Source of the DNA: Planctomycetota bacterium
GTDB lineage: Bacteria; Planctomycetota; SZUA-567; H5-PLA8
Direction: 5' to 3'
Length of the DNA: 64,000 nt
Assembly: GCA_038227875.1 (NCBI GenBank)
Contig: JBBRPR010000003.1
Span: 64,001 to 128,000 of the forward strand
The notes under the pieces: model-generated
Told to the model about the DNA's origin: nothing
Database searches by the model: none
Seen by the model: the letters and a program-made list of their open reading frames with translations, nothing else
Position numbers and translations under genes: made by a program
In this document: positions 8,035 through 48,028 of the stretch, in pieces
Layout: each line of letters starts with the position of its first letter
How positions within the stretch are numbered: the first letter of the stretch is position 1

Positions 8035-8128
8035 GAAGGCAGAAGGCTGTGACAGTAGGCAGTCTCGTTTTGCTGTGAGCAGGAATTGTGATTATGCAAG
8101 ACCACCAACTGCTGTGCCTTCTGCCTTC
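8035..8128. repeat. Inverted heptamer-array element, GGCAGAA/GGCAGTA family
   Basis: gaaggcagaaggctgtgacagtaggcagt faces actgctgtgccttctgccttc between convergent genes; related arrays at 26793-26807 and 28441-28481. Confidence 0.65.
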
Positions 8129-9039
8129 TACAATGTCTTCACCCACGCGTACACCAGCCCCTCGATCTCCTCGATCGTGTACTTGTTGTCGAACATCGCG
8201 CGCAGGGAGTCCTGGGGCTTTTCGTCCTTGGCGTCGCGGACGCGTGCGTAGAAGGCTTCGAGTTTGCCTTTGTCCTGCAGGTACTGCATCAGGTAGCGCA
8301 TCGAGGCGTAGTTGGAGCCGCGGTGATCGCCGTAAAAATCGGCGTCGCTGATGCCGATCAAATCGCGGTAGTGTGCGGCCTTGCCGTTGGCGAGGTCCTG
8401 GAGCAGACCTTTGAGCCGCCAGTTCTTCACGCCGATGACTTTGCGGGTCGAACTGATCGTCGGCATCTCGTAGAGACTGCCGAGACCTTCGTTCAGCCAT
8501 GCCGGGATGGAAGGAAAATCGGCCTCGGCCATTGCATGCGTCATTTCGTGAGTCAGGGTGCCGTCGCCGGTGCCGATGTTCATCACCAGCGCGCGTTTGG
8601 CGCGGCTGAAGTAGCCGTAGGGCGTGGTCGGCTTTTCCTTGTAGAGTTTCAGATTCCATTTGTTGTAGCTCTCGCCGTCTTTGAAGAGCATCACTTTCAG
8701 CGGTTCGGTCACGGTCGCTTTGGTAAAGAGCTGGCGCTGAATCTGCGCAGCGTAGAAGCCGATGGTCCAGTCGGTGATCGAGCGGAGTTCGTCCGGTTCC
8801 AGATCGGTGGCGATCAACCACGGTCCGACGTTGGCGTAGCGGAACTCGCGGCCGAATTCGGCTTTCATCTCCGCGACCATCGGGTCAGATTTTTCCGCCG
8901 CCGGCGCCGTCCACGGCAGCCGCGGAGTGGCCGAGGCCATCTCTTGCGCCGAGCCGTCGCCGCGGGCGGACTCAGCAAAGGCGAAAACGCCCAGCGTCAG
9001 CGATAGCGCGGCGAGTATCGATAGAATTCGGACACACAT
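8128..9039 (-). CDS. Secreted zinc metallopeptidase-like protein (DUF1570 / peptidase MA-like)
   Basis: Signal peptide, THEMTH (HExxH) followed by PAWLNEGL. Confidence 0.75.
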   Translation of the reverse strand: MCVRILSILAALSLTLGVFAFAESARGDGSAQEMASATPRLPWTAPAAEKSDPMVAEMKAEFGREFRYANVGPWLIATDLEPDELRSITDWTIGFYAAQIQRQLFTKATVTEPLKVMLFKDGESYNKWNLKLYKEKPTTPYGYFSRAKRALVMNIGTGDGTLTHEMTHAMAEADFPSIPAWLNEGLGSLYEMPTISSTRKVIGVKNWRLKGLLQDLANGKAAHYRDLIGISDADFYGDHRGSNYASMRYLMQYLQDKGKLEAFYARVRDAKDEKPQDSLRAMFDNKYTIEEIEGLVYAWVKTL

Positions 9040-19545: not shown

Positions 19546-19694
19546 GTTAGTAATAGGACGCGCGCGGGCAACGGGAATTCAAACGGAGTGCGCATTGCTT
19601 GAACTTCATTTTTATTTAGCACTTTCACCGTTCTCGCGTCTATAATCGTGGGCCGCGCCGGGTTGCAGGCGCGGGTGAGTGTGAAGGATAGATT

Positions 19695-20186
19695 ATGCAG
19701 TGGGTTGTGTGGTTGCCGTGGCTGGCCTATTTCGGTTCCGGATGGGCGATCGGTCTGGTCCTCGAGTACTTCCTTCACATCATCATGCACCGCCGCAGTC
19801 TGGCGTTTCACATTCATCATCATCATGATTTTTTCAATCTGCCCGCGCGCGAAGTGGCGATCAAGGACCTGAGCCCCCGCTTGAACGTGGTCTTCCTGCT
19901 GGGTCTGCTGCTGGTGGCTGCTCCATTGATGTACTGGCTGGGCTGGAAGCCCGTCGTCGTGGGCTGGGCTGGCGTGGTCTGGCATATCCTGATCGTTTAC
20001 GAAGCCTGCCACGCGCTGATACATTACGACGCGATCATTCCGGAGCTGATCGAGCGGCGCGGCGCCTATCAATGGTGGCGCGCGTGCCATGTGGAACACC
20101 ACCGGCATTCACCCGCGGGAAATTACTGCGTTTCGTTTCCCGTGCTGGATGTTCTCTTCGGAACATATATTCGTCCGAAGACCTGA
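19695..20186 (+). CDS. Fatty acid hydroxylase / sterol desaturase family membrane di-iron protein
   Basis: His boxes HIIMH, HIHHH, HALIH, HVEHH; GNYCVSFPVLDVLFGT. Confidence 0.85.
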   Translation: MQWVVWLPWLAYFGSGWAIGLVLEYFLHIIMHRRSLAFHIHHHHDFFNLPAREVAIKDLSPRLNVVFLLGLLLVAAPLMYWLGWKPVVVGWAGVVWHILIVYEACHALIHYDAIIPELIERRGAYQWWRACHVEHHRHSPAGNYCVSFPVLDVLFGTYIRPKT

Positions 20187-42927: not shown

Positions 42928-43057
42928 AGAATTCCTCCACGACGATTGGACGACGATGGCCACTGAGCATTACACGGAGATTGTCGATTTTTCTCACAAA
43001 ACCCTTGCCCTCTTCAAATTCATAGTGTTAAGTAAACACTATGAAGGAGAGATTACT

Positions 43058-43912
43058 ATGAAACAAACACAACGCGTCACTGCAGCCAAGAAGACGCTGG
43101 AGATTATCGAACGGGGCGGCTACGCGAATCCTGCGGGACAAGACGTCCCGCTGCGCGCCGCGATCGAGCGCTGCGTCGGTGGTTCGAAATTGTATCTGCC
43201 GGAAGAACTGGACGTCCTCCGCGACGCCGTACTGGCCCAGTCCAAGCCCTACGCCACGACGCGGTTTGAACTTCGCAACGAAACCACGCTGGAAGGCGCG
43301 CTGCGCGTGGTCCGCAGCGGCGAATTCTCGAACGTCGCCGCGCTGAACTTCGCCTCCGCGCGCAATCCCGGCGGCGGATTCCTCGGCGGCGCGCAAGCGC
43401 AGGAAGAGAGCATCGCGCGCAGTTCGGCGCTGTATGCGAGTCTGCGGGCGTGTTTCGCGTTCTATGAATACCACCGCGGCATGCAATCGCTGCTCTACAC
43501 CGACCGCATGATCTACACGCCGCAGTGCCCCGTCTTCCGCACCGACAACGGCGCGCTGCTGAACGAGCCCTACTGCTTGAGCATCATTACCAGCCCGGCG
43601 CCGAACGCGGGCGCGCTGCAGCGCAACCAGCCGCAGGACGTGGCGAAGATCCCCGGCGTCTTCCGCGAGCGCACGGCCAAACTCCTGGCGCTGGCCGTGG
43701 AGCAACACTGCGACGCGCTGCTTCTCGGTGCGTGGGGCTGCGGCGTATTCAAGAATTCGCCCGCTGTCGTGGCCTCAACGTTCCGCGAACTCCTGGCGCC
43801 TGGCGGGGCCTTTCACGGACGCTTCAGTTTCGTGCTCTTCTCGGTCTACGACACGACCGAGGGTCTGCCGATCTACACGGAATTCGCGAAGCAGCTCGAA
43901 GAGTTCTGCTAG
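43058..43912 (+). CDS. TIGR02452 / DUF2263 macrodomain (bacterial PARG-like ADP-ribose glycohydrolase)
   Basis: LNFASARNPGGGFLGGAQAQEES, LGAWGCGVFKN; AAGGAG RBS. Confidence 0.92.
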   Translation: MKQTQRVTAAKKTLEIIERGGYANPAGQDVPLRAAIERCVGGSKLYLPEELDVLRDAVLAQSKPYATTRFELRNETTLEGALRVVRSGEFSNVAALNFASARNPGGGFLGGAQAQEESIARSSALYASLRACFAFYEYHRGMQSLLYTDRMIYTPQCPVFRTDNGALLNEPYCLSIITSPAPNAGALQRNQPQDVAKIPGVFRERTAKLLALAVEQHCDALLLGAWGCGVFKNSPAVVASTFRELLAPGGAFHGRFSFVLFSVYDTTEGLPIYTEFAKQLEEFC

Positions 43913-44541
43913 CCAGAACTCTCCAGCGTGAATTCCGACCCGGTGTACACCCGCACCGGATTTCCGCGCTCCAGGCTCTGGTGCTGCGCCCAGCGCTGCC
44001 GCTCGACGTGTTGAGCGGCGGCGCCGCTCTTTTGCGCGAGGGCTTCGGCCAAACGCGCGAAGGCGAGTTTCCGATTCGCGTGTTGCGAACGTTCTTCGCG
44101 ACCAACCACGACCAGGCCCGTGGGGACGTGCCGGATGCGCACGGCGCTTTCCGTTTTGTTCACGTGCTGACCGCCCGGACCACCAGCGCAGAGAAATGAA
44201 ATCTCGATCTCTTTCATCGACCACGCCGGTTTTTCCGGGACGCTCAGCGCATTGACGCCGACGAACCAGTTTCGCCGCTTGTAGTTCGCCCGGAACGGAC
44301 TCTTGCCGATCCACAGCACCGTTCCGGTCCACGTGGCGAGAAAGGCGGCGAGTCCCCGGCCGTCGACGGCCGTCAGCACCGAGTCGAGCGTCCCTGACTC
44401 GCGTCCCGCGACCGAATGCAGCAGCGTCACGCCGATGCCCACGCGCTGGGCTTCGCCGCAGAAGCAGCGCAACACGCGGGGCACGACCCAGGCGCATTCC
44501 GATGGCCCCTGCCCTGCGGTAATTTGAAGCCAGCAGCTCAT
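43909..44541 (-). CDS. prfH: Peptide chain release factor H
   Basis: LQITAGQGPSEC, SPFR...RRNWFVG, GPGGQHVNKTESAVR, HQSLERGNPVR. Confidence 0.93.
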   Translation of the reverse strand: MSCWLQITAGQGPSECAWVVPRVLRCFCGEAQRVGIGVTLLHSVAGRESGTLDSVLTAVDGRGLAAFLATWTGTVLWIGKSPFRANYKRRNWFVGVNALSVPEKPAWSMKEIEISFLCAGGPGGQHVNKTESAVRIRHVPTGLVVVGREERSQHANRKLAFARLAEALAQKSGAAAQHVERQRWAQHQSLERGNPVRVYTGSEFTLESSG

Positions 44542-45668
44542 CGCGCCTCCCTTCGCACCTTATAGGTGATCAGCGGCCGCAGGCGCGCGATCACGCGCAC
44601 CAGACCGGCCTGGACCAGATCGTTGACGACCACATCGACATTTTTGTACGCCTGCGGCGCTTCTTCGTAGAGCAGATCGCGATCTTCGCAGATCACGCGG
44701 CCGCCGATTTCCGTGCGCACCAGCTCCGCTTCGTCAAAGCGCCCGCGCAGCCGCGCGCGACAGTCGGTGCGATTCCATTTCCGGCCCGCGCCGTGCGAGA
44801 GACTCCACGCATGCGCCGCCTGCTCGCTGACCTCACCCCGCGGCATCACGAGGTAAGAGAGCGTGCCGCGGCTGCCGGGAATCATCAGCGCGCCGCGCGT
44901 CGAGGGGTTGGCTCCCTTGCGGTGCACCCACGCTTCGCCGCTCGACTCCACACGCTCGATGTAATTGTGCGGCAGGTCGAGCACCGTCTGCGCCTCCGAA
45001 CCCAGCGCATCCAGGAAACGGCTGGCGATCAATGCGCGACTGGCCTGCGCCCACGTCACGGCGTAATCGTGAAGCGCCGTGTATTCGCGCGCGTCATCGC
45101 CGTCGGTAGGCAACGCAGCATAGCCGTGCTTGAGCATGTGCGAGCGCAGGACGTCATGCCCGAGGCCCCGCGAGCCGCTGTGGACGAGCACCACGAGGCG
45201 GTCCTCGTCGAGTCCCAGCGCGGCGAAGGCCGCCGCGTCATCTACGCGCTCCACCTGCTGCAGCTCGCCAAAGTGATTGCCGCCGCCGATCGTGCCGAGC
45301 GACTGATCCTGCGCGCTGGGACCGATCGCGAAGTTGCTGAGCCACTTTTCGCGATCGCCGTTCCACGGTTGATCGAGGTCCGTCAGTTTCTTCTCCCAGC
45401 GTTCCAGCTTCGCCTTGCGGGCCATTAAGTCCGACCGCCACAGCCCCATGCCGCAGCCGACATCGTTGCCGACCAGGTGCGGATAGATCACACCGCGCGA
45501 GACGAATGCCGCGCCGACCGGCCCGCATTTTCCGGGATGCAAATCCGGCAAGCCCACCGCCAGTTCCATTCCCGGCAGCCCGGCGGTCCCCTTGAGCTGC
45601 GAGACCGCGTTTCCTTCGATCCAATTTTCATCCGACGAAATCAGACGCACGTTTGCAGAGACGCTCAT
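44538..45668 (-). CDS. rtcB: PrfH-coupled RNA ligase RtcB (RtcB2)
   Basis: PDLHPG, VGNDVGCGM, GTIGGGNHFGE, HSGSRG, HRKG, SHGAGR, EEAPQAYK; overlaps the prfH start (ATGA). Confidence 0.94.
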   Translation of the reverse strand: MSVSANVRLISSDENWIEGNAVSQLKGTAGLPGMELAVGLPDLHPGKCGPVGAAFVSRGVIYPHLVGNDVGCGMGLWRSDLMARKAKLERWEKKLTDLDQPWNGDREKWLSNFAIGPSAQDQSLGTIGGGNHFGELQQVERVDDAAAFAALGLDEDRLVVLVHSGSRGLGHDVLRSHMLKHGYAALPTDGDDAREYTALHDYAVTWAQASRALIASRFLDALGSEAQTVLDLPHNYIERVESSGEAWVHRKGANPSTRGALMIPGSRGTLSYLVMPRGEVSEQAAHAWSLSHGAGRKWNRTDCRARLRGRFDEAELVRTEIGGRVICEDRDLLYEEAPQAYKNVDVVVNDLVQAGLVRVIARLRPLITYKVRREAR

Positions 45669-45960
45669 AAAAATCCTCACGAATCCGCGCTGCGAAGCAC
45701 GGAGCATCACACGGTCCAGACGCAAAGCGCGGCTGGAAAAAGTGACAGCGCTGAACCGGTGCGCAGTTTGAGCGCGTAACGGCAGAGCTTCAGACGAGTG
45801 AGTTTGGGTTTGGCGGATCGTGAAGGATTCGAGCGTGGAACGCGGGGTGTTGCAGAACTATTTTACGCGAGCGCAGCGCCGGATTTCAGATCGCCGAGAT
45901 TCGTGAGGTGCGTCATGGGAGTGCTCCTATTAGTGCAGTCGCGGCCGTTCTGCCGCGCCT
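45669..45960 (-). promoter_or_regulatory. Structured 5' leader / putative attenuator of rtcB2-prfH
   Basis: Two anti-SD segments (45898-45908 and 45813-45830) are complementary to the rtcB2 SD region 45672-45688; alternative stem 45685-45694 / 45721-45732. Confidence 0.7.
45863..45916 (-). CDS. Leader peptide MTHLTNLGDLKSGAALA (17 aa)
   Basis: TAGGAG RBS 7 nt before ATG 45916, TAA at 45865-45863. Confidence 0.7.
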   Translation of the reverse strand: MTHLTNLGDLKSGAALA

Positions 45961-45999
45961 ATTGTGAGCATGAACAAACCCCATGAATCGCACGTTGTC

Positions 46000-46092
46000 A
46001 AGTCGTATGAAATATCGGCAGGGGTAATTATGTCCTGGAGCTTCTTGTTGCTGACGCAACCCGGCCCGAGGGGCCGGGCCACCCCTCGCGGG
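46000..46092 (+). repeat. Half copy of the 37858-38045 element
   Basis: Matches 37958-38051; 62-bp core tgtcctggag...cgcggg with one mismatch. Confidence 0.85.
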
Positions 46093-46156
46093 TTGTTCGG
46101 TCACGCTAGAGAAATTAGCGCGCCGCTACTTCGTCATTCGTTATTCGACATTCGCA

Positions 46157-46624
46157 CTACTTCTTCCCGTTCGCCTTCAGCAAATCCGCCAGCGCGGTTG
46201 CCAGTTCGGCATTTTTGCCCAACGTCCAGGACGGCGTGTTCAGGCGGACGACGCCCCATTCTCCGTCGCCGTAGACCCAGACCTGGCGGAGCATCTTCGG
46301 GCCTTTGAAGCAGCGCAGCGTCATCGCGATTTCGCCGGCGGAAGGTTCGACTTCCGAGATTTTCATCGCGTCGGTGATCTTCTTCAGATCGTCGGCGTCG
46401 GTGATGTTCGCTTTTTTCGGCAGGCTCTGGTCGGGCGCGGTTTTCTCGAGCACGATCTCGATGCGGTCGCACGATTTGATCGCGGGAAGATCGGAACCCT
46501 TCCCCTGCCCAAGCGCGGCCTTCTGCGTCTCCGCGTCTTTTTCGTGATCGTCGGCGCCATACGTGGCCGTGGCGGTCACGCAGAACAACACCAATAGGGG
46601 GAGCATTCGAAGCAGCGTGCGCAT
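46157..46624 (-). CDS. Secreted hypothetical protein
   Basis: Signal peptide MRTLLRMLPLLVLFCVTATA; GAGG RBS. Confidence 0.65.
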   Translation of the reverse strand: MRTLLRMLPLLVLFCVTATATYGADDHEKDAETQKAALGQGKGSDLPAIKSCDRIEIVLEKTAPDQSLPKKANITDADDLKKITDAMKISEVEPSAGEIAMTLRCFKGPKMLRQVWVYGDGEWGVVRLNTPSWTLGKNAELATALADLLKANGKK

Positions 46625-46747
46625 GAGCGGGATCCTCTTTTCAGTCGAGACGGTGCCACGTTACGCCTGCGCCGCCTTCGCGTCAACGCGCGCGATTGCT
46701 CTGCGCGTTGAACTCCACCTGCGCTCCGCTACGATGATTTCCGCATC

Positions 46748-48028
46748 ATGAGCGCCGCCGATCCGTACTCCGCCCTTCGACTCCGCGATTTTCGCTGCTA
46801 TCTCGCCAGTTCCATGTTGGGCACGATTGGCTTTCAGGTCCAGATTCTCGCGGTGCGTTACGAAGTCTTCGGCCGCTCCAACGACGACTACATGTCGCTG
46901 GGTTGGATGGGCCTGCTGATGACCGCCCCCGCCCTGCTGCTCACGCTGCCGGCCGGACAGATTGCCGACTGGTTCGACCGCCGCCTGGTAATATGCATCG
47001 CGCTCTTTGTCGCCGCGTGCGGTGCGCTGGGTTTGTACTTCGTCTCCATCTACCACGGTCCCTTGTGGATGGTCTACGCCGCGGTGTTGTTGCGCGCGAC
47101 GGCCGGCACGTTCACACAACCGGCGCGCGGCGCGTTGCTGCCGCAGATCGTGCCCAACGATGAGCTGGCCAACGCGATCACGTGGAATTCCAGCAACATG
47201 CAAATGGCGCTAATGGTCGGCCCGGCGCTCGGCGGCTTCATCGCATCGAAGAGCATCTCCGCCGCGTACCTCACCGACGCCGCCTGCATGATTGTCTCGC
47301 TCTTCAGCATTCTTGCGATCCGCCACCGCCGCCCCGTGGCCAAGCGCGAACCGGCGACGCTTCACGCGGTGATGGCCGGCCTGCGTTACGTGACAAAAAC
47401 GAAAGTCATTCTCGCCACGCTGACGCTGGATCTGATGGCGACGATCTTCGGCGGCGCCACCGCGCTGCTGCCGGGTTTCGCCAAGAATATTCTTCACGTC
47501 GGCCCGACTGAACTGGGCTGGCTCAACGCCGCTCCGGCCGCCGGAGCGGTGGTGATGTCCGGATTGATCGCGCACTTCGGGCCGCTCAAGAACGCCGGCC
47601 GCGCGTTGATCATCGCCGTGATCGGCTTCGGCGCGGCAACGGCGCTGTTCGGCATCTCCGAATCGTTTTACCTTTCGCTCTTCCTGCTCTTCCTGACCGG
47701 CGCGTTCGACAACATCAGCGTGGTGGTGCGGCACACGCTGGTGATGGCGCTGGCGCCGGAGAACATGCGCGGCCGCATCTCCGCGGTCAACAGTTTGTTC
47801 ATCGGCGCGAGCAATCGCTTGAGCGATTTTGAATCGGGATTGACGGCGCGTCTCTGGGGCCCGGTGGCGTCCGTGGTTTTCGGCGGTGTGGGATCGATGA
47901 TCTGCGTTGTCGCCGCCGCGGTGAAGTGGCCGGAACTCCGTCAGATCGGTTCGCTGGAAGACTTGCGGCCCGGCATCAGTCCCGCTGAAGCCGAGGAGAA
48001 GGGCGTTGAAGAGAAGGCTCCAGCGTAA
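46748..48028 (+). CDS. MFS transporter (EntS / H+ antiporter-like)
   Basis: AGQIADWFDRR, GPALGG, APENMRGRISA; 12 TMs. Confidence 0.9.
   Translation: MSAADPYSALRLRDFRCYLASSMLGTIGFQVQILAVRYEVFGRSNDDYMSLGWMGLLMTAPALLLTLPAGQIADWFDRRLVICIALFVAACGALGLYFVSIYHGPLWMVYAAVLLRATAGTFTQPARGALLPQIVPNDELANAITWNSSNMQMALMVGPALGGFIASKSISAAYLTDAACMIVSLFSILAIRHRRPVAKREPATLHAVMAGLRYVTKTKVILATLTLDLMATIFGGATALLPGFAKNILHVGPTELGWLNAAPAAGAVVMSGLIAHFGPLKNAGRALIIAVIGFGAATALFGISESFYLSLFLLFLTGAFDNISVVVRHTLVMALAPENMRGRISAVNSLFIGASNRLSDFESGLTARLWGPVASVVFGGVGSMICVVAAAVKWPELRQIGSLEDLRPGISPAEAEEKGVEEKAPA

Follow-up and report, generated by a model that had tools for sequence, protein, structure and literature searches.

RtcB2 and PrfH rescue and re-ligate ribosomes with cut 16S rRNA, and the known substrate of the pair, as described in the literature consulted here, is 16S rRNA cleaved by colicin E3. 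In the same literature, control of RtcB2-PrfH production is described only for the armZ operon of Pseudomonas. In Pseudomonas aeruginosa, ArmZ (PA5471) is reported as an RtcB-like ligase and PA5470 as prfH, and the leader peptide PA5471.1 is described as acting by transcription attenuation (PMC12057347, PMC13041342). In the proposed model, a ribosome stalled on PA5471.1 abolishes an intrinsic 3:4 terminator (PMC13041342). In the literature searched, P. aeruginosa was the only species for which leader control of an rtcB-prfH operon turned up; the word "leader" is absent from the 2006 operon paper and from the paper on the operon of Escherichia coli ATCC25922, and a paper on D. deserti (PMC4007540) that uses similar terms deals with an unrelated subject. 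Here, the leader of an rtcB2-prfH operon is described in a genome of the phylum Planctomycetota (GenBank assembly GCA_038227875.1, contig JBBRPR010000003.1, positions 64,001 to 128,000). This whole stretch of 64,000 nucleotides is referred to as the window. All leader elements lie on its minus strand, and positions are given in window coordinates.

Two leader systems of E. coli offer further comparisons. In the tnaC leader, the stop codon of the open reading frame (ORF) adjoins a Rho loading site, so that Rho is blocked when a ribosome is retained on the last codons. In the toiL leader of topAI-yjhQ, an upstream ORF is reported to sense stalling; the ribosome-binding site (RBS) of topAI is occluded, and the untranslated message undergoes premature Rho-dependent termination (PMC12121999).

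By analogy, the window leader can be regarded as the planctomycete counterpart of PA5471.1-armZ-prfH, the closest known system. A first-pass annotation of the window, made from the sequence alone, had already drawn on the Pseudomonas precedent, and its account agrees with the reports cited above. Both systems place a short ORF with a Shine-Dalgarno (SD) sequence in front of a gene for an RtcB-family ligase and prfH, and in both, the sensing of stalled ribosomes is proposed to free the operon from a default-off state. The window belongs to another phylum, its leader ORF has 17 codons, and the anti-MexZ role of ArmZ shows no sign of a counterpart.

The reading preferred here, which is given about an even chance of being right, holds that the leader is a ribosome-sensing cis-regulator with a translated 17-codon ORF, acting through RBS occlusion and Rho termination. 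Transcription would start ∼50 nt upstream of the leader ORF. In the default-off state, the RNA of the ORF (codons 3 to 16) and a second anti-SD element would both bind the RBS of rtcB2 and leave the gene untranslated, while a naked C-rich tract after the leader stop codon would allow Rho to end transcription in the hairpin-rich spacer or in the untranslated rtcB2. Ribosomes stalled on the leader by damaged 16S rRNA, antibiotics, or tRNA damage would refold the leader or shield the tract. RNA polymerase would then read on, and rtcB2-prfH would be translated.

The Operon and Its Leader ORF

Profile matches identify the gene pair as a bona fide rtcB2-prfH operon, in agreement with the first-pass assignment. 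The gene rtcB2 (44538..45668, minus strand; ATG at 45668) encodes a release-factor-H-coupled RtcB family RNA ligase of 376 amino acids (aa), which matches NF007153 with 501 bits (cut-off, 407) and TIGR03073 with 449 bits (cut-off, 271.8), in alignments that span almost the entire protein, and is also matched by Pfam RtcB. Directly downstream, prfH (43909..44541, minus strand) encodes a protein of 210 aa that matches TIGR03072 with 231 bits (cut-off, 166.65) and retains the GGQ motif (GGPGGQ). The two genes share a stop/start overlap, ATGA, at 44541-44538; such overlaps are already recorded in the 2006 description of the rtcB2-prfH operon.

The leader ORF (MTHLTNLGDLKSGAALA) occupies positions 45863..45916 and comprises 17 sense codons, beginning with an ATG at 45916 and closing with TAA (45865-45863). 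An SD sequence, AGGAG (45924..45928), lies 7 nt before the ATG, and 194 nt separate the stop codon from the ATG of rtcB2. The ORF and its RBS had been noticed during the first-pass annotation and are read at the same positions here.

Three scans based on RtcB2, covering 41 neighborhood genomes, one genome per species (80 of 497 matches kept), and metagenome contigs (80 of 481 kept), yielded eight distinct related leaders whose RtcB2 proteins are 60 to 92% identical to that of the window (L111, L112, L116, L117, and L031 to L034; L118 repeats L034). Counts out of nine leaders include the window. An SD-like purine block, an invariant aligned ATG, and a short ORF are present in all nine, and the ORF measures 17 to 20 codons in eight. 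The N terminus is rich in threonine, which fills 22 of the 48 positions at codons 2 to 7 of the eight distinct peptides. These threonine codons share an invariant AC and differ at the third base (ACC, ACG, ACA, and ACT). This is a coding-type pattern, but an A/C-rich unstructured start would produce the same picture. In L111, whose RtcB2 is 92% identical, the leader peptide is unchanged and all three nucleotide changes in the ORF are synonymous; 78 of the 331 same-residue codons of rtcB2 differ between these two loci. The short ORF is thus very probably a real leader peptide ORF, and its translation is predicted. A leader-peptide regulator upstream of rtcB2-prfH is well supported by comparative evidence because the leaders have in common a TTGAC element, the SD-led ORF with its threonine-rich start, a C-rich tract, and two hairpins.

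In L117, the leader ORF (728-856) extends to 42 codons and spans the C-rich tract; the ORF may truly be longer in this locus, or the metagenome contig may contain an indel.

The TTGAC element forms part of a candidate promoter. The box TTGACA (45996..46001), in which TTGAC is invariant in 9/9 aligned leaders and is followed by a GG(T/C)T block, would be the −35 element, paired with a weak −10 element, TTTGTT, at 45978-45973. This places the putative transcription start site near 45966. The expected transcript opens with a 5′-terminal hairpin (45936..45961) in minimum free energy (MFE) structures, and L111 has a hairpin of other sequence at this place. Among 160 rtcB2 loci, the promoter pattern is found in the clade members and in one sequence common to L079 and L163. 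A consensus promoter scan of 45400-46400 gave the TTGACA site no score. The sole promoter-like site that it returned is a sigma-70-like CTGAAA-18-TAAAAT (9/12) at 45889-45860 on the minus strand, within the end of the leader ORF. As a real promoter, this site would take the leader ORF off the mRNA, contrary to the preferred reading; its spacing is lost in L033 and L112.

Continuous similarity between the window and L111 begins at the −35 box. Beyond it, the two have in common only a GC-rich hairpin, CCCGGCCC-CTC-GGGCCGGG (46050-46083, minus strand), ∼50 to 80 nt upstream of the box, which is probably a terminator or insulator of the upstream unit. The ORFs neighboring the operon show no Pfam or NCBIfam match except for a divergent MFS transporter.

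Further searches around the leader gave little. No second copy was found in the window's own genome (the next-best match had an E value of 0.06). An Rfam search of 43000-48000 with E values up to 10 returned only a sub-threshold RT-12 match inside prfH, and none of the three 20-aa leader peptides of relatives that were compared to NCBIfam had a match. Among the public sequencing runs listed as carrying this sequence, none was of RNA; contigs of four DNA runs cover 45746-45940 with 0 differences, so that no variants were available for covariation. A likeness of the leaders to the 3′ end of 16S rRNA or to the colicin E3 site was looked for by eye; only an 8-nt GTCGTAAC in L034 came up, and the candidate was dropped.

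Predicted Pairing with the rtcB2 Ribosome-Binding Site

The translation initiation region (TIR) of rtcB2 (GATTCGTGAGGA, 45666..45685) consists of the SD sequence GAGGA (45678-45674), UUUUU, and the AUG at 45668. Three segments of the leader are complementary to it. The first, anti-SD 1 (CCTCACGAATC, 45898..45908), covers codons 3 to 7 of the leader ORF and is an 11/11 reverse complement of GATTCGTGAGG (45685-45675), which includes the SD sequence. Segment B (AATCCGGCGCTGCG, 45872..45885) covers codons 11 to 15 and is complementary to CGCAGCGCGGATT (45694-45682) apart from a single bulged G. Anti-SD 2 (AATCCTTCACGATCCGC, 45813..45829) lies behind the leader stop codon, inside the C-rich tract, and pairs with the same SD region over 17 bp with two one-base bulges. 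The calculated duplex energies with the TIR are −23.5 kcal/mol for codons 3 to 7, −26.6 kcal/mol for codons 9 to 17, −36.6 kcal/mol for both together, and −24.7 kcal/mol for anti-SD 2, which makes the three partners similar in strength. An alternative stem that would leave the SD sequence free, formed by 45732-45721 with 45694-45685, is also present (−17.4 kcal/mol). All of these pairings had been proposed in the first-pass annotation, where the second was assigned to codons 11 to 16, and each is found in the sequence.

The complementarity of ORF and TIR exceeds chance in the window. No exact complement of the TIR (−30..+3) in the upstream leader is longer than the 11-nt match, a length that was reached in 16 of 2,000 dinucleotide shuffles. 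The best TIR-leader duplex, whose partner is the leader ORF, reaches −35.8 kcal/mol, compared to −26.1 ± 2.6 kcal/mol for shuffled sequences, of which 0/300 reached it. The predicted unpaired probability of the rtcB2 SD sequence is 0.13, compared to 0.31 ± 0.09 when the upstream sequence is shuffled, and 2 of 60 shuffles were as low. Predicted occlusion of the RBS by leader structure is thereby shown statistically for the window; the other eight leaders do not show it. A duplex calculation that set the ORF against all of the leader downstream of it was uninformative, since very large loops are permitted.

The closest relative, L111, retains the pairing. Its ORF:TIR duplex is reached by 5/300 shuffles, and although its TIR region differs from that of the window at several positions, the individual pairings hold their strength at −23.0, −22.1, and −21.9 kcal/mol, with −34.4 kcal/mol for the whole ORF compared to −36.6 kcal/mol in the window. 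Segment B contains one double change from A-U to G-C, achieved through the synonymous change of AAA to AAG; the same change in the target yields an A·C mismatch in the helix of codons 3 to 7. Masking of the RBS by the leader ORF looks selected in the genus-level lineage, since the pairing keeps its strength in L111. It is not the common denominator of the family, as the pairing lacks significance in the more distant relatives.

Several results weigh against occlusion as the switch that the preferred reading requires. The MFE of the whole leader is ordinary (z = −1.24), and 12/100 shuffles fold as well. In L112, the duplex is borderline (13/300) and its partner lies outside the ORF, while the other six relatives give p values of 0.35 to 0.96. 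The exact-match test agrees, with no significant ORF:TIR complementarity in the seven more distant relatives, and in the SD-occlusion test of eight relatives, the fraction of shuffled sequences as low as the observed value was 0.28 to 0.93. The agreement of the window and L111 amounts to nearly one observation because the two are close kin. When the ORF is forced to be single stranded, the SD sequence still remains paired, its unpaired probability falling to 0.09 in the window (0.13 without the constraint) and to 0.20 in L111 (0.26 without it); a gain in SD accessibility under this constraint was seen in 0/9 leaders. The constraint covered the whole ORF or codons 1 to 8, and the predictions are for equilibrium, from which cotranscriptional kinetics could differ. 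The SD sequence stays closed with the ORF blocked because anti-SD 2 (45829-45813) takes over.

The central proposal of the first-pass annotation, that a stalled ribosome on the leader unmasks the SD sequence, therefore does not follow from thermodynamics. Its broader idea of a leader-peptide switch fares better with regard to the conserved SD-led ORF and the ORF:TIR pairing beyond chance; the purely translational mode is not supported, and what the family conserves is the C-rich tract and the hairpins. Conservation of the pairing in homologous leaders, on which that proposal also depended, holds for L111 and fails for the other seven relatives.

The ordinary MFE and the lack of conserved pairings across the family would also be expected if there were no switch at all, with a long constitutive 5′ untranslated region, an ORF that is fortuitous or a translational "starter," and complementarities that are due to chance or serve mRNA stability. 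By eye, the 194-nt spacer is about as diverged between the window and L111 as synonymous sites are (uncounted), which fits this explanation. It is nevertheless quite unlikely, as the ATG, the SD sequence, the ORF length, and the threonine-rich start are conserved in position down to 60% RtcB2 identity, the ORF of L111 carries synonymous changes only, and the C-rich tract and hairpins are conserved. Independent leader ORFs also precede rtcB2 in E. coli and P. aeruginosa.

The C-Rich Tract, Spacer Hairpins, and Possible Termination

A C-rich, G-poor tract (45792..45857) begins ∼6 nt after the leader stop codon and extends over ∼65 nt, with a C content of 0.47 and a G content of 0.12 in 60 nt. 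It resembles a Rho utilization (rut) site and is a candidate Rho loading site. Tracts with C of at least 0.45 and G of at most 0.13 in 60 nt occur three times in the 64 kb, counting both strands. All nine leaders have a comparable tract, with C at 0.43 to 0.58 and G at 0.10 to 0.20 in seven of them and weaker values in L117 (C, 0.38; G, 0.17) and the AT-rich L034 (C, 0.32; G, 0.08). An excess of C over G of at least 0.30 is seen in 14 of the 125 distinct rtcB2 upstream regions compared across all phyla, and six of the 14 are clade members. Rho is encoded in the genome (TIGR00767, 682 bits; cut-off, 509). The composition of the tract is that of a Rho loading site, and binding of Rho is predicted on this basis. 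Because the family-wide feature is a rut-like tract and the genome encodes Rho, a component acting on transcription, of the kind known from toiL-topAI or tnaC, is indicated; the conserved tract and hairpins suggest that transcription is terminated prematurely as at least part of the control, which would then not be a purely translational switch.

The other two such tracts of the window, at 19655-19726 (minus strand) and 8117-8176 (plus strand), both overlap long ORFs at least partly.

The window leader shares with toiL-topAI the predicted occlusion of the downstream RBS by leader structure. The genes and sequences of the two systems are unrelated, however, and Rho acts inside topAI, whereas the candidate rut site here lies in the leader. 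The relief of occlusion by ribosome occupancy, as in toiL, is not reproduced in silico. With tnaC, the window shares the position of the tract directly behind the leader stop codon; unlike tnaC, it has no tryptophan-sensing arrest motif.

Control could be purely transcriptional, by Rho-dependent attenuation of the tnaC type. Here, the leader ORF would gate the access of Rho to the C-rich tract, and the anti-SD pairing would be a lineage-specific extra or a by-product of a pyrimidine-rich tract lying opposite a purine-rich SD sequence. The presence of the tract in every leader, its rarity in the window background and among other rtcB2 upstream regions, its start 6 to 16 nt past the leader stop codon in 5/9 leaders, and the encoded Rho all speak for such a mechanism, as does the lack of conserved SD masking. 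Against it stands the ORF:TIR complementarity of the window, which is beyond chance and is kept in L111 despite the differences between the TIRs. Other results count against the Rho component in this explanation and in the preferred reading alike: the tract lies 37 to 94 nt past the stop codon in 3/9 leaders and inside the 42-codon ORF in L117, and the calculated accessibility of the tract does not consistently distinguish an early stall from a ribosome that has reached the stop codon. Taken together, the purely transcriptional explanation is judged rather unlikely.

In another model, a ribosome that stalls early would allow the C-rich tract to be covered by the 3′ half of the ORF, which is rich in G. 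The duplexes required amount to −20 to −33 kcal/mol in 8/9 leaders but exceed the expectation from composition only in the window (0.02), L111 (0.04), L116 (0.01), and L034 (0.05). The model is thus compatible with the duplex energies and unsupported by the accessibility calculations. A bolder form of the preferred reading is a two-layer ribosome-damage sensor specific to this planctomycete family. The ORF RNA itself would serve as the anti-RBS, the RBS having three redundant partners in all, and the tract behind the stop codon would lead to abortion by Rho; only early stalls on the threonine-rich start, caused for instance by cleaved 16S rRNA, would unmask the RBS and also conceal the tract. 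This form is considered possible but doubtful.

The spacer between the leader ORF and rtcB2 contains three hairpins. H1 is a GC-rich, imperfect hairpin followed by UUUUU (45737..45791); the hairpin (45791-45742) has a calculated energy of −15.8 kcal/mol, and the U-run (45741-45737) lies at −73 from rtcB2, forming a weak site resembling an intrinsic terminator. Attenuation through such a terminator, as modelled for PA5471.1, would assign the terminator function to H1 and UUUUU (45791-45737) and require that stalling on the leader favors an antiterminator. Similar sites in L112 and L117 and the 3:4 terminator of the Pseudomonas model, as reported (PMC13041342), are in line with this explanation. 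It is very unlikely all the same: hairpin and U-run sites were detected in only 3/9 leaders (the window, L112, and L117), a consensus scan of the window leader returned no terminator, the H1 stem-loop is long and imperfect, and no conserved antiterminator pairing was found. In contrast to the Pseudomonas model, the conserved element of these leaders is the C-rich tract, and the window adds the direct pairing of ORF and SD sequence.

H2 (45716..45736) carries a top, CGC-N5-GCG, that is invariant in 6/6 sequences, with AAACGC...GCG flanks in six leaders. The extension of its stem varies (CCAG/CTGG, AAAA/TTTT, and GTGAA/TTCAC) and pairs at 3 to 6 of 6 positions. These extensions were counted by hand because RNAalifold, applied to the 3′ parts of six leaders, recovered nothing beyond the invariant CGC/GCG mini-stem, for which the covariation term was 0. 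Among the 160 rtcB2 loci, the H2 motif occurs in the clade members (RtcB2 at least 60% identical) and in one dissimilar match in L094. H3 (UCCGUGCU/AGCGCGGA, 45684..45703) appears in MFE folds directly 5′ of the SD sequence, and its 3′ strand doubles as the pairing partner of segment B. The relatives have an equivalent of H3 just before the SD sequence, with a different sequence in every lineage. Both H2 and H3 are thus kept despite differing sequences.

The sequence conservation of H2 exceeds the needs of a plain hairpin and could reflect a contact with a protein or the ribosome or a pause signal.

Leaders of Other rtcB2 Operons and the Control of Ribosome Repair

A leader ORF also precedes rtcB2-prfH in E. 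coli E2348/69 (locus L192). A 15-codon ORF, MTNPLSMTLCRPFQD (620-667), with the SD sequence AAGGAGG, ends 66 nt before rtcB2 (start at 733); the RefSeq record of this locus holds three features and leaves the ORF unannotated. The SD sequence of rtcB2, GGAATGG, faces CCATTTCC ∼20 nt upstream. The operon and the layout of the leader ORF are the same as in the window, but the E. coli leader has a short spacer, no C-rich tract, and no sequence similarity to that of the window.

Other rtcB2 loci show further small ORFs. Those of Melainabacteria/Obscuribacterales contain, instead of a mini-leader, a conserved ORF of 32 to 48 aa (MKRNASVYVKGRIRHADHAT...WHRVLMNTE...FLD) 45 to 200 nt upstream (L074, L079, L081, L084, L099, L100, and L103, with shorter forms in L068, L078, L082, and L097). 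A Pfam search with this ORF gave nothing significant; it may encode a small partner protein, or it may function as a long leader peptide. Proteobacterial and other loci carry SD-led ORFs of 8 to 15 codons in which His, Asn, Tyr, and Thr appear abundant by inspection (MRNIHTHK, MRNIHTHN, MINTYTHTR, MRNIYAYTR, and MTHHALISLCRPLQA); they are found in L043, L048, L064, and L076, at about −184 to −230 before rtcB2, and in L050, L083, and L085.

The codons for His, Asn, Tyr, and Asp are read by queuosine tRNAs that some anticodon nucleases cut, and the His, Asn, Asp, and Tyr tRNAs are targets of anticodon nucleases. The leader could sense a specific tRNA pool instead of ribosome integrity, with hungry codons close to the ORF start that respond to tRNA-Thr (charged or intact) or to the His, Asn, Asp, or Tyr tRNAs. 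The threonine content of codons 2 to 7, the His, Asn, and Asp residues that the window peptide has at codons 3, 6, and 9, and the richness of proteobacterial leaders such as MRNIHTHK and MINTYTHTR in such residues agree with this possibility; in P. aeruginosa, codons of PA5471.1 read by single-copy tRNAs are reported to matter in a cca mutant (PMC13041342). However, His, Asn, Asp, and Tyr are not enriched in most peptides of the clade, an A/C-rich start may merely keep the initiation region unstructured, and the substrate described for RtcB2-PrfH is cut 16S rRNA. Sensing of the tRNA pool is thus highly improbable.

The window leader adds a new example to a type of control already known from Pseudomonas, in a lineage-specific architecture that combines a long spacer with a C-rich tract and a triple anti-RBS. 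With its perfect 11-nt complement between ORF and SD sequence and two further partners, it is an unusually explicit case for experiments. Because independent leader ORFs precede the same operon in different phyla, here in Planctomycetota and E. coli, leader-peptide sensing of failing ribosomes is suggested as a general control logic of this repair system, with read-outs that differ by lineage: an intrinsic terminator, RBS masking, or possibly Rho. If true, the two-layer sensor would give Planctomycetota their first demonstrated Rho-coupled leader-peptide switch and would add to the evidence that ribosome-repair operons across phyla directly sense ribosome failure.

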